From Escherichia phage WPEC1, in the sequence record PV659873.1: a stretch of DNA of 64,000 nt; one strand, written 5' to 3'. The number at the start of each line of letters is the position of its first letter. The stretch's first letter is position 1. Below the pieces are notes generated by a model. It ran no database searches, was not told where the DNA came from, and worked only from the letters and a program-made list of their open reading frames with translations. The position numbers were made by a program, and so were the translations under genes. Shown here in pieces: positions 42,605 through 44,540 of this stretch.

Positions 42605-43492
42605 TCAGAACGGAATATCATCGTCGAAGTCCATTGGAGGTTCTTCTTGATTACTTGGAGTTGGTTCTGGTTGTGGTTCAGGTTTCTTAACTTCTTTCTT
42701 CTCTTCTTTCTTAGGCTGTTCTGCGGAACCACGAATGGCAGCAGCAACTTTATCAGACAGAGCTAGAACTTTACGAGCAGAGTCAATCAGATCTTCTACA
42801 GATACAGTCTTAATGGTATGGTCTTTACAAGCATTGAGAATAGCGTGACCAACAGATGCCCCAAGATCATAATCATTAATATCAACACCACGAGATTCAG
42901 CAATTTCCGATTTCAGCGTGACAGTTGCAGATTGAACAACCCCAGCGATATCGAAAGCATCGCCTTTAACACCATTACGAATCAGTTCCAGTGCACCATT
43001 TACTGCGTGACCAGTTTCCAGACCTACAGTATCACGTTTTTTATAAGACTGCTTAGGAGCAGTATCGTTGGAACCTTTATTGCCAGAAGATTTGTTAGAC
43101 TTCTGAACACCATCGGTAGACAATACTGTAATACGAGATTTTTTAGTATTGTAGTAAGTTTTACCGCCTTTATTATCAACGCGATCAATATCAATACTTA
43201 CTTCTACACCTTTTTCAATAGTGATCCAGTTATCACCTTCTTTGACTTGCAGGTTTTCATAACCTTCTTTCAGTTCAATATCACCAAGAGAAATCCAAAC
43301 ACCTTTCTCATCTGGTTTAGCACCTTTCTCTTTCAGAACAAGAGAAGCTCGGTGAGTTGAAACAATCGTTTTTCCTTCCCAATGAAAAGTTTTAGGTTCA
43401 GCGAATTTATCCAGTTTAACGTAGTCTACGATACCAGTTGCATAAGTTACGGTTTTGCCTTTACGATCAGTTTCAGTATTAATTACGGACAT
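42605..43492 (-). CDS. ssb: single-stranded DNA-binding protein with E. coli-type acidic C-terminal tip
   Basis: C-terminus EEPPMDFDDDIPF matches E. coli SSB tail; Gly/Lys-rich linker. Confidence 0.7.
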   Translation of the reverse strand: MSVINTETDRKGKTVTYATGIVDYVKLDKFAEPKTFHWEGKTIVSTHRASLVLKEKGAKPDEKGVWISLGDIELKEGYENLQVKEGDNWITIEKGVEVSIDIDRVDNKGGKTYYNTKKSRITVLSTDGVQKSNKSSGNKGSNDTAPKQSYKKRDTVGLETGHAVNGALELIRNGVKGDAFDIAGVVQSATVTLKSEIAESRGVDINDYDLGASVGHAILNACKDHTIKTVSVEDLIDSARKVLALSDKVAAAIRGSAEQPKKEEKKEVKKPEPQPEPTPSNQEEPPMDFDDDIPF

Positions 43493-43508
43493 TATTATCT
43501 CCTCTACA

Positions 43509-43901
43509 TTACATTAATTTTGCACAGAAAGAACGGAGTCTTTCCATATCATCTTGCTCTAACAGGTATTTACCTTTACCTATCCCAACTCCAATTTCAC
43601 CATTAGGAAAATGAACTATTTGCACTGGAAAACCTCCGAGTTTAATTGTGGCAGCTTTGCCTTCTTCGTCTATAACGTTTCGGATTGTATCTTGCAGTGA
43701 AATGAATTCTTTGTTTGTAACAGTGGTTTCAATTATTTCGGATGTTTCAACACGAGCAGTTAGCTTCTTGTCGCCACCTTGAATAACCAAAATTTGAAAA
43801 TAAAAAGAGTTGTCAAGACCTACAACATTTTTCTCAACTAGTGTCAAACTGGTATAGTTTCCATAAACAGTTTCAACAGCTATCTTAGAACGTTCAGTCA
43901 T
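43509..43901 (-). CDS. hypothetical protein
   Basis: 130-aa ORF. Confidence 0.4.
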   Translation of the reverse strand: MTERSKIAVETVYGNYTSLTLVEKNVVGLDNSFYFQILVIQGGDKKLTARVETSEIIETTVTNKEFISLQDTIRNVIDEEGKAATIKLGGFPVQIVHFPNGEIGVGIGKGKYLLEQDDMERLRSFCAKLM

Positions 43902-43946
43902 TGAATGCTATCCTATCATAAAATGTTTAATATTGTCAAGCTTTAA

Positions 43947-44540
43947 TTACCAAGGAATATCATCTTCTTCCGATCTGGTATCTACTTGAGGTGGACGCGG
44001 AACCTTCACTTCTTTAACAAAACGTAGATATGGGAAACGTGTGGCAATTTTAATAACATGTTTGGCATCTTCTCTAACGTCTTTGTGCAAGAAGCAGATC
44101 CCTGTTTCCAAGGTTGTTTCAAAATCTTTAGAATAATAACAATCCTTCCCATCAAATGCAGCCTGGCAGATGGACAGATCGAACTCATTTAGAAAGGTTG
44201 TCATTACGCTTGGTTCCATAATCATAAGGTTGCAAAGCTGACCATCACGTTCAAACTCAAAAACGTGTTTAAGACCAGTAACACCTTCATAATTGTCAGA
44301 AGCCTCTTTGTTTCCTAGTTTACGAATATTGGTTCCCATTAAAGCAGATGCAATTAATCCTTGTATTTGTTCTTCAGTCCGATGTGCAGGAAGGGATGTA
44401 TAGAAATCCAGATCACGTCCAGCAATATCAAGAATACGCCAATCACGAACAGCACCGCCAGCCAAGACAGAATTAGGATCAGCGATCTTTAATACGGTAA
44501 GAATTTCTTTGGCAATATTGATTTGTTTTGATTTAGTCAT
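43947..44540 (-). CDS. Pol-beta-superfamily nucleotidyltransferase (CCA-adding-enzyme-like head domain) with SSB-tip-like C-terminus
   Basis: LAGGAVRDWRILDIAGRDLDFY (GGxVRD ... DxD); C-terminal SEEDDIPW. Confidence 0.5.
   Translation of the reverse strand: MTKSKQINIAKEILTVLKIADPNSVLAGGAVRDWRILDIAGRDLDFYTSLPAHRTEEQIQGLIASALMGTNIRKLGNKEASDNYEGVTGLKHVFEFERDGQLCNLMIMEPSVMTTFLNEFDLSICQAAFDGKDCYYSKDFETTLETGICFLHKDVREDAKHVIKIATRFPYLRFVKEVKVPRPPQVDTRSEEDDIPW

Follow-up and report, generated by a model that had tools for sequence, protein, structure and literature searches.

In a phAPEC8-like phage, two of the last three genes of the replication operon, separated by a single gene, encode proteins that end in short acidic tips of the kind that the E. 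coli single-strand DNA-binding protein (SSB) carries. One of these proteins is a likely SSB and the other is a small putative nucleotidyltransferase ending in DDIPW. Bacteria use the SSB tail as their main address for directing repair, restart and nuclease proteins to single-stranded DNA, and the last two residues of the E. coli tail (SSB-Ct) enter a hydrophobic pocket of the partner proteins whose rim bears basic residues. We propose that the DDIPW tip is also an address label, which would tether a minimal 3'-end-adding enzyme to the receptors of SSB tails; judged from sequence, structural models and analogy with known systems, this reading has in our view about an even chance of being right. 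Binding as such, the receptor (from host or phage) and the substrate of the enzyme are what we infer here.

The stretch that was analyzed (the window) comprises 64,000 nucleotides of Escherichia phage WPEC1 (PV659873.1) and comes from the genome of a Phapecoctavirus (phAPEC8-like) E. coli myophage. Escherichia phage WPEC4 (155.8 kb), which is 100% identical to the window over positions 42000-46000, served as the reference. The operon runs from a primase-helicase gene through the gene of a PolA-type polymerase and several small ORFs to the nucleotidyltransferase, a 130-aa protein and the SSB-like protein, whose gene is the final one. Both minus-strand ORFs of the preliminary description, 42605-43492 (295 aa) and 43947-44540 (197 aa), were found at exactly these coordinates, and the enzyme gene does lie two genes upstream of the SSB-like gene, one 130-aa gene (43509-43901) being placed between them. 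The primase-helicase of this phage ends in ...PTDSNY. The polymerase matched only DNA_pol_A in a Pfam scan, and on our reading of its sequence it may contain an intein. The features of the region are:

42550-42573, bidirectional (no strand assigned): terminator-like hairpin between the SSB-like gene and a convergent tail-protein gene.
42605-43492, minus strand: gene of the SSB-like protein (295 aa, phrog_4477), ending in ...NQEEPPMDFDDDIPF.
43118-43492, minus strand: N-terminal beta domain of the SSB-like protein (aa 1-125), an OB fold as predicted from the model.
42734-43027, minus strand: four-helix domain (aa 156-253) with an internal repeat, GLETGHAVNGA and GASVGHAILNA (AF2 pLDDT 88-94).
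42644-42733, minus strand: disordered Pro/Glu/Lys-rich linker (aa 254-283; pLDDT <50 at 259-283).
42608-42643, minus strand: SSB-Ct tip EPPMDFDDDIPF, the last 12 aa of E. coli SSB, followed by the stop codon TGA at 42605-42607.
43509-43901, minus strand: conserved 130-aa protein (phrog_16560) with the motif HF[PE]NGEIGVGIGKGKYLLE, between the enzyme and SSB-like genes.
43947-44540, minus strand: putative minimal class II-type nucleotidyltransferase (197 aa, phrog_10174), containing LAGGAVRDWRILDIAGRDLDFYT and ending in ...TRSEEDDIPW.
44406-44462, minus strand: catalytic motif A of the enzyme, AGGAVRDW...DLD (aa 27-45), recognized from conservation and a PDB alignment.
43950-44012, minus strand: low-confidence C-terminal tail of the enzyme (aa 177-197) with the DDIPW tip at 43950-43964, followed by the stop codon TAA at 43947-43949.

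The genes for the enzyme, the 130-aa protein and the SSB-like protein keep this arrangement in 10 of 78 IMG/VR loci, in one Logan contig and in phage Tr1. The 130-aa protein has 24 close homologs and no match in Pfam, PDB, PADLOC or NCBIfam; a PDB profile search returned only a non-significant sigma-factor stretch (E = 0.05).

The SSB-like protein had been described as a phage SSB with a tip of exactly the host type. The tip proved to be exact: in an alignment with PDB entries 1eqq and 4mz9, the last 12 residues are identical to those of E. coli SSB (ending MDFDDDIPF), and they follow a disordered linker and terminate in D-D-D-I-P-F as in bacterial-type SSBs. By sequence the protein is not a canonical SSB: it gave no Pfam match to the SSB DNA-binding domain (PF00436), NCBIfam PRK09010 covered residues 254-295 only (22.8 bits, cutoff 260), and the SSBs of the PDB and the SSB families of PHROG (residues 269-295 and 247-295, respectively) aligned only at the C-terminal end. 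The model combines a predicted OB fold with a helical domain, followed by a disordered linker and the tip, and we take the protein to be a likely single-strand DNA-binding protein. Unlike E. coli SSB, the body would thus consist of a different OB domain and an extra four-helix domain, in which G211 and G215 are invariant among 121 sequences. The helical domain had no informative structural match in PDB and BFVD, and a BFVD fold search with the model returned uncharacterized relatives only.

Within the family of the SSB-like protein, mean column identity is 0.82 in the tip vs 0.34 in the linker, and the terminal residue is consistently Phe. We compared the tip codons of the phage gene with those of host ssb, whose 3' end was checked across >5,100 E. 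coli genomes, and found that 6 of 12 differ, 6 synonymously and 0 non-synonymously. A recent capture of the tip from host ssb was rejected because half of the codons differ synonymously.

The assignment of the upstream gene to the nucleotidyltransferases, also made in the preliminary description, was upheld in its structural part. The model is a confident head plus neck of a class II enzyme (CCA-adding/poly(A) polymerase type), including the Pol-beta-like head fold by which this class is defined, and in fold it comes closest to CCA-adding enzymes and poly(A) polymerase. Motif A aligned with GGAVRD...D.D of the CCA-adding enzymes in the PDB (E = 0.003); among 140 family members, G28, G29, D43 and D45 are invariant, and A27, A30, R32, D33 and W34 are conserved in at least 90%. 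Judged from the fold and the invariant GG...DxD, the enzyme looks catalytically intact. Pfam did not bear out the assignment, the score against PolyA_pol (PF01743) being 13.8 bits where the gathering cutoff is 23; a PF01743 match at E <= 0.01 was obtained for 18/140 relatives. The arginines of motifs B and D, as we take them to be, appear to have been replaced (NEFDLSICQA vs RRDFTINA; EDAKH vs EDxxR). The folded part of the model stops at about residue 176 of 197, whereas class II enzymes in the PDB have 344-517 residues, so that the body and tail domains that anchor tRNA are absent and the protein has about half the usual size. A stand-alone CCA-adding head-domain protein of 191 aa (NP_344798.1, PDB 2la3) is on record; its sequence relationship to the enzyme was undetected in the PDB profile search, and we know of no SSB-type tip on it.

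These closest folds would also fit a conventional phage enzyme, a tRNA nucleotidyltransferase or poly(A) polymerase for repairing or tailing the 3' ends of RNA, with an acidic tail that has a different role, such as solubility, autoinhibition or contact with an unrelated partner. Several GenBank records label the enzyme tRNA nucleotidyltransferase/poly(A) polymerase, and the 155.8-kb reference genome holds 10 tRNA genes. However, CCA is already encoded in 10/10 of these genes, and no tRNA gene was found within the window, which weakens a role in tRNA maturation. Nor do the missing tRNA-binding domains, the sub-threshold PolyA_pol score and a tail whose end is invariant on a drifting linker and matches the motif of phage SSBs suit such an enzyme. 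At 50% identity, the enzyme family falls into about 1,000 clusters, and its members occur alongside genes for PolA and a gp4-like primase-helicase and not alongside tRNA genes. Of 78 IMG/VR loci, 53 have a gp4-like primase-helicase at <=10 kb from the enzyme gene and 38 have PolA within this distance. We therefore regard a plain tRNA or poly(A) enzyme as unlikely.

The tail to which we ascribe the function of an address label closes in E-E-D-D-I-P-W, with Trp where the [IL]-P-F motif has Phe. The Trp codon directly adjoins the stop codon, so that the tip forms the extreme C-terminus with a free carboxylate. DSSP assigned no secondary structure beyond residue 175, and block-averaged pLDDT was 67 for residues 181-190 and 50 for residues 191-197. 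The tip thus appears as a conserved motif closing a low-confidence, presumably disordered tail: of the 10 homologs of >=58% identity, 9 end in DDIPW and one in DSFPW, on linkers that differ in length and sequence, and this combination of a flexible, varying linker with a conserved end is what characterizes SSB-Ct-type motifs. Where the gene order is kept, homologs as distant as 36-37% identity still end in DIPW, for example as NFPDDIPW at 36% identity in a Logan contig of the same synteny and as KDIPW in Citrobacter phage Tr1. Syntenic orthologs of 34-38% identity in Justusliebigvirus and other relatives end in NEEFKI, FMDEI or SPDVFNF; therefore, the tip is a lineage-specific addition and not intrinsic to the job of the enzyme. 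In the enzyme family as a whole, xP[FWY] ends are modestly enriched (6/150 vs 12/1,265, p = 0.008). The idea that the family generally carries acidic, aromatic-ended tails was rejected (6/150 vs 48/1,265).

Among the 583 stop-to-stop ORFs of the window (>=40 codons), only the SSB-like protein and the enzyme end in [ILVM]P[FWY], and the same two are the only ones with an acidic xP[FW] end among 2,567 ORFs (>=30 codons) of WPEC4. Both tips are therefore not a matter of chance. The terminal residue is consistently Trp in the enzyme and consistently Phe in the SSB-like family, so the two tips may not share one receptor. A separate comparison asked if co-resident tip-bearing proteins match in their terminal residue (W or F), but only few loci held two such proteins.

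The ending of the enzyme had been called a near-copy of the SSB tip. It is indeed a conserved motif, but it is not merely a near-copy, [DE]DDIPW being a recurrent phage version of the SSB tip. This ending occurs on at least 24 phage protein clusters, among them canonical phage SSBs (phrog_44), other SSB families (phrog_9002) and helicases (phrog_16), suggesting a common way to wire phage proteins into, or against, the SSB hub. Because it ends canonical phage SSBs, DDIPW lies within the natural range of the SSB-tip motif in phages. A search of IMG/VR for [DE]DDIPW followed by a stop codon gave 119 matches that end real ORFs. For the narrower pattern DDDIPW plus stop, a search of 185,579 species genomes gave about as many matches as would arise by chance. 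The Trp-ended tip is thus largely confined to viruses and almost absent from cellular genomes.

A broader reading of these sequences would be that phages possess a wide class of tip-tagged proteins that use the Trp-ended, mainly viral DDIPW to gain access to pockets that otherwise recognize SSB. The enzyme studied here would then be an active minimal nucleotidyltransferase that arms a mimic of the SSB tail, and it would be sent to SSB-interacting host or defence proteins, or to their nucleic-acid ends, in order to modify these and not to serve tRNA. We hold this to be improbable.

In the reading that we prefer, with the tip as an address label, both tails would be short docking motifs of the SSB-Ct class, each consisting of an acidic run, Ile-Pro-aromatic and a free carboxylate behind a disordered linker. 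The SSB-like protein would coat the single-stranded DNA of the phage and display its host-identical tip. The enzyme would be a cut-down class II enzyme that has kept the catalytic head and neck but no longer has body and tail domains for holding tRNA, and the DDIPW tip would most likely stand in for these domains. Because the tip is a conserved and mostly viral variant of the SSB tail, the enzyme is probably docked on sites that recognize SSB tails. The tip would then tether it to such proteins at single-stranded DNA or at the replisome, where it could add nucleotides to a nucleic-acid 3' end.

The same tail could instead make the protein a decoy, in which case it would fill the SSB-Ct pockets of ExoI, RecQ, PriA or chi and so block repair, restart or nuclease functions of the host, with the catalytic domain an incidental part. 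The viral bias of IPW tips would fit a variant tuned to outcompete the Phe tip of the host, and a lineage-specific tip is what an arms race would be expected to leave. However, the catalytic residues are invariant across the enzyme family and in its tipped members, which argues against a pure decoy, since a decoy would not need them. Furthermore, a decoy with one tail per monomer would face tetrameric host SSB clustered on single-stranded DNA, and the pocket of chi, for which a model of E. coli SSB-Ct docking exists, is tight, V117F and V117I displacing F177 (PMC3045619). We consider a decoy quite improbable.

An anti-defence enzyme related to Gad2, with a tip that steers it to a defence-system helicase or nuclease that binds SSB, is very unlikely. 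Gad2 (PF26128) is a phage protein described as anti-Gabija with a predicted nucleotidyltransferase domain (bioRxiv 10.1101/2023.05.01.538930), and the Gad2 family label is sometimes given to small phage nucleotidyltransferases encoded beside a primase-helicase, enzymes that can be toxic (bioRxiv 10.64898/2026.09.15.751885). A precomputed PF26128 flag from Pfam is attached to several homologs (P0009; faintly to P0136, P0279 and the enzyme of locus L091; weakly to P0238). Against this stand a length of 400 aa for Gad2 vs 197 aa, a different genomic setting in which the enzyme gene is a fixed syntenic part of a replication operon and not of an accessory island, and the absence of any PADLOC defence-system signal near the trio. 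With a permissive cutoff of E = 10, hmmscan against Pfam matched neither the window enzyme nor any of eight homologs to PF26128; membership in Gad2 was rejected, a significant match not being reproduced in direct scans.

A DDIPW end without function has next to no probability: the DNA common to both tips is only GATGATATTCC and orthologs in sister genera lack the tip, but the tip is unique in the genome, persists in homologs of 97% to 36% identity although the linker drifts, and is identical to the ending of phage SSBs.

The address-label reading can be set beside known systems. Like E. coli SSB-Ct, the enzyme tip is built of acidic residues, Ile-Pro and an aromatic residue at a free C-terminus; unlike it, the aromatic residue is Trp. 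The T7 helicase-primase gp4 carries an acidic, aromatic-ended tail like that of gp2.5, and this tail is said to bind T7 DNA polymerase. As stated in PMC12339929 and the references cited there, the acidic tail of gp2.5 contacts a basic patch of the polymerase and its C-terminal Phe is essential. As in T7, two proteins from the replication module of one phage bear acidic, aromatic-ended tails next to PolA and a gp4-like primase-helicase. The second tailed protein here, however, is a putative nucleotidyltransferase and not a helicase, and the motif is of the bacterial IPF type and not the DGDF type of T7. At another locus (L078), a gp4-like helicase ends in ADDRVPF and a gp2.5-like SSB in DEDVPF.

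A phage SSB with a host tail is expected; a phage enzyme with a virus-typical tail is less so, and we found no paper that describes one. A literature search of incomplete coverage gave no precedent for DDIPW, or for SSB-Ct in connection with phages, mimicry or nucleotidyltransferases. The tip provides a concrete entry point for experiments on the large family of small nucleotidyltransferases that phages encode in PolA/primase-helicase replication modules.

In many close relatives, the SSB tip is non-terminal and is followed by 15 residues. This cap is linked to an HNH endonuclease gene located exactly at the tip-coding sequence. It is a possibility, as these sequences read, that the tip is switched on and off in the SSB-like family by the cap tied to the HNH gene. 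The preliminary description had supposed that the phage SSB plugs into the SSB interactome of the host. The exact tip agrees with this, but by the E. coli SSB+Gly data (PMC3045619) residues after the tip should block canonical docking, and the cap thus weakens so simple a reading. The SSB-like proteins of DE16, Tr1 and other phages bear the cap, whereas the tip of the enzyme is free, so that docking in common with the phage SSB would require removal of the cap in these phages. SSB alleles with and without the cap occur naturally and are a ready-made test of how important a free tip is in infection.

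The replication operon of Escherichia phage WPEC1 lies on the minus strand and encodes, in order, a primase-helicase, a methyltransferase-like ORF, a PolA-type polymerase, three small ORFs, a nucleotidyltransferase (the enzyme), a 130-aa protein and an SSB-like protein, the last three genes forming its 3' end. Escherichia phages WPEC4, WPEC2 and WPEC6 match positions 42000-46000 at 100% identity; for tuntematon and further Phapecoctavirus (Stephanstirmvirinae) myophages, with genomes of about 150 kb, the figure is 97-98%. The phAPEC8 nucleotidyltransferase is 99% identical to the enzyme.

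Features at the 3' end of the replication operon
43947-44540, minus strand: nucleotidyltransferase gene, 197 aa
43509-43901, minus strand: 130-aa ORF, between the enzyme and SSB-like genes
42605-43492, minus strand: SSB-like ORF, 295 aa
42550-42573: bidirectional terminator-like hairpin after the SSB-like ORF, facing convergent tail genes

The SSB-like protein ends in ...NQEEPPMDFDDDIPF, and its last 12 residues are the last 12 of E. coli SSB, which bears out the host-type acidic tip claimed in the preliminary description. The enzyme, encoded two genes upstream at 43947-44540 (-), ends in ...TRSEEDDIPW, so that the SEEDDIPW end reported there was also found. When the 3' end of host ssb was checked in 5,112 E. 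coli genomes, 6 of the 12 tip codons differed between phage and host, and all six differences were synonymous, suggesting that the tip peptide is held by selection. Recent copying of the tip from host ssb is ruled out by the same six differences. Of the window's 583 ORFs, those of the enzyme and the SSB-like protein alone end in [ILVM]P[FWY], and the same two are the only ORFs with acidic xP[FW] ends among 2,567 in the whole 155.8-kb genome of WPEC4. An acidic C-terminal tail is usual for the ribonucleotide reductase small subunit, and we therefore set aside the sole further acidic, Phe-ended tail of the window, which belongs to that subunit (10428-11513). The tips are real and non-random. Outside the window, WPEC4 CDS031 (PV682947.1, 14114-14305), which adjoins anaerobic ribonucleotide reductase genes, encodes a 63-aa hypothetical protein whose end, ...GGDELQRLPF, weakly resembles the tip.

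An exhaustive profile search placed 1,034 cluster representatives in the enzyme family at E <= 0.001, mostly of 175-230 aa. The structure model of the enzyme, built with 140 relatives, is confident (pLDDT 88.7, pTM 0.83); the fold stops near residue 176, and confidence is low over the last 20 residues. Pol-beta-fold enzymes of other kinds scored no higher than 8 in comparison with it. G28, G29, D43 and D45 are invariant in 140 family sequences, and the family profile aligns motif A with PDB CCA-adding enzymes (E = 0.003). The predicted fold and the invariant residues suggest that the enzyme is a head-plus-neck class II-type nucleotidyltransferase. In its structural part the earlier interpretation is right. 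The Pfam PolyA_pol match, at 13.8 bits, stays under the 23-bit threshold. Unlike its larger class II relatives, the enzyme lacks the body and tail domains, which hold tRNA in those proteins.

Both tails are best read as docking motifs belonging to the SSB-Ct class. The E. coli SSB-Ct places its final two residues in a hydrophobic pocket while the free carboxylate and the aspartates touch basic residues, and a single glycine added to the tip left no detectable binding to the partner protein chi (PMC3045619). We infer the function of the tip and of the enzyme as follows. Having lost its own substrate-holding domains, the enzyme would rely on the tip for targeting, like an address label that brings it to SSB-tail-reading proteins, of host or phage, on single-stranded DNA or at the replisome, where it may add nucleotides to a 3' end. 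The closest precedent for shared tails is T7, whose helicase-primase gp4 carries a tail similar to that of gp2.5; the primase-helicase of WPEC1, in contrast, has no SSB-type tail. For gp2.5, the acidic, Phe-ended tail is reported to engage the polymerase (PMC12339929). Sharing of the T7 kind is paralleled in a metagenomic phage (L078), in which an acidic VPF tail is common to a gp4-like helicase (3062-3904, ending ADDRVPF) and a gp2.5-like SSB (6199-6750, ending DEDVPF).

Gene company bears on what the enzyme does. Within 10 kb of the enzyme gene, a gp4-like primase-helicase was found at 53 of 78 IMG/VR loci and a PolA polymerase at 38; the arrangement of enzyme, 130-aa and SSB-like genes recurs at 10 of the 78, in Citrobacter phage Tr1 and on a Logan contig. 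In WPEC4, CCA is encoded by each of the ten tRNA genes. Together, these data favour a function within the replication module over one in tRNA maturation, and an ordinary tRNA or poly(A) enzyme seems unlikely. The active site is apparently intact. We give slightly less credence again to the enzyme being a pure decoy. A Gad2-like anti-defence enzyme is a shade less probable than either: its sole support is a set of faint or weak precomputed Pfam flags, but direct scans did not reproduce them.

Among ten enzyme homologs of 58-97% identity, nine end in DDIPW and one in DSFPW, and the linker before DDIPW varies in sequence and length. An ortholog of 36% identity with this gene order conserved ends in NFPDDIPW and the Tr1 ortholog in KDIPW, whereas syntenic orthologs from Justusliebigvirus (phi92-like) and other relatives end in NEEFKI, FMDEI or SPDVFNF, suggesting that the tip is a lineage-specific gain. 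A few unrelated family members end in NDIPW, DDGIPF, KPIPF or ESIPY; such ends occur in 6/150 family members versus 12/1,265 ORFs of the background (p = 0.008), and the family shows no enrichment of acidic-aromatic ends in general. Coincidence is a very improbable source of the DDIPW end. The tip of the SSB-like family has Phe in 120/120 representatives, so that the two tips of the phage differ systematically at the last residue (Trp vs Phe).

Trp-ended tips were sought in IMG/VR, the pattern being [DE]DDIPW directly before a stop codon. At least 120 stretches matched, of which at least 119 close ORFs of 61-601 codons (L094-L213) in at least 24 sequence clusters. Those identified among the listed matches include canonical SSBs (phrog_44, at least 18 members), another SSB family (phrog_9002), SF2 helicases (phrog_16), phrog_862, phrog_21342 and several unannotated families, one with at least 29 proteins of 153-241 aa, most of them near 195 aa, and another with at least 16 of about 89 aa. 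It therefore looks common for phage proteins other than SSBs to bear SSB-type tips. The narrower pattern DDDIPW-stop, scanned in one genome from each of 185,579 cellular species, gave 65 matches, roughly our own estimate of chance expectation; 22 close ORFs shorter than 60 codons, 43 close longer ones, and only 10, in scattered taxa, are SSBs. The comparison is qualitative, since the patterns differ slightly and the viral counts are lower bounds. It shows the Trp-ended tip to be a real variant on phage SSBs and non-SSB phage proteins and rare in cellular genomes. That a minimal nucleotidyltransferase bears a conserved, virus-typical SSB-type tip is a new twist on a known device (shared replisome tails, SSB-Ct docking), and it offers a useful way into a large family of uncharacterised enzymes. 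Cellular non-SSB proteins with a Trp-ended tip were seen in filamentous cyanobacteria (Microcoleus, Oscillatoriales, unclassified cyanobacterial MAGs), where ORFs of 309-543 codons share the end ...TPIYGVNRETTKKAAE.PAKWG(EHN)DDDIPW (L215, L220, L226, L234, L241, L244, L266, L271). At another locus (L037), a DnaD-like 158-aa protein ending in DDEEGLPF lies beside an SSB-like protein ending in DDSIPF.

The SSB-like protein belongs to phrog_4477, which has no annotated function. SSB models from PHROG, NCBIfam and PDB match it in its tail alone, and on sequence grounds it does not count as an SSB. Its structure model (121 sequences, pLDDT 76.6) has the following parts.

Predicted parts of the SSB-like protein
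residues 1-125: beta domain
residues 132-149: disordered stretch
residues 156-253: four-helix domain, well predicted
residues 259-283: second disordered stretch, then the tip

Conservation in the family peaks at the tip, where mean column identity is 0.82; it is 0.58 in the predicted OB domain, 0.56 in the helical domain and 0.34 in the linker. No other SSB-annotated protein was found in the fully annotated WPEC4 genome, and a few GenBank records annotate this gene as SSB. The earlier name of phage SSB fails by sequence, yet we take the protein to be probably the SSB of this phage, of unusual two-domain build and with putative DNA binding. A host-type tail on a phage SSB is ordinary. The helical domain (42734-43027, -) holds two copies of G-x-x-x-G-H-A-[VI]-x-N-[GA], with glycines invariant in 121 sequences; structure and sequence comparisons gave it no relative of known function.

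In about 17 of 120 SSB-like representatives the tip is capped by 14-16 extra residues beginning [AS]P[ILV]GLQY, as in APIGLQYGRNFLHCF, where DFDDDIPF is not terminal. Capped examples include DE16 (98% identical to window 42000-46000), Tr1 and Justusliebigvirus PD06, and the DE16-type sequence occurs in twelve GenBank phages.

Loci compared for the cap and the HNH ORF
window 42540-42610 (uncapped)
DE16 (L002) 1114-1200
Tr1 (L090) 4064-5501
three metagenomic contigs (L091-L093)

In Tr1 and the three contigs, a homologous HNH endonuclease ORF directly follows or overlaps every capped gene; DE16 keeps only its first codons, and PD06 has the cap alone. The HNH gene may be of the homing-endonuclease type and have settled where the tip is encoded. 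Variation in the first seven cap residues is mainly synonymous in the SSB frame, suggesting that the cap peptide itself is under selection. WPEC1 carries the uncapped allele, and the sequence past its stop codon loosely resembles the cap start. By analogy with the added glycine, the cap should prevent canonical docking unless the protein is processed. In capped phages, no protein but the enzyme has a free tip. The cap lowers our confidence that the main job of the SSB tip is host-partner docking and that both tips share one receptor.

Several further observations were made in the region. The polymerase (45169-48501, -) has 1,110 aa versus 829-864 aa in some relatives (L091, L092) and carries, directly after its DFDSLE motif, an intein-like insert that begins at Cys (HY|CVPMDAQALT), ends ...ITITGN|C and contains a TADH block and a LAGLIDADG-like FLEGFLIADGY; Pfam matched DNA_pol_A alone (residues 845-1009), with no intein match. 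At sampled positions outside 42000-46000 the window also matches PV682947.1, but it loses collinearity with that record toward its ends, reflecting either a different genome arrangement or a different order in one assembly. The window has no tRNA genes; the WPEC4 cluster of ten lies about 17 kb from the SSB-like gene. Within the 45-nt gap between the enzyme and 130-aa genes is a sigma-70-like site (43910-43939, -; TTGACA, 18 nt, TAGGAT, with an upstream TG), although the count of such sites in the region is not above that in shuffled sequence. A search for homologs of known function detected none for the 130-aa protein (43509-43901, -). It is strongly conserved, with an invariant stretch NGEIGVG.GKGKYLLE, its gene position is kept even where the relatives' enzyme has just 34-38% identity, and it is a candidate partner of the enzyme or of the SSB-like protein.
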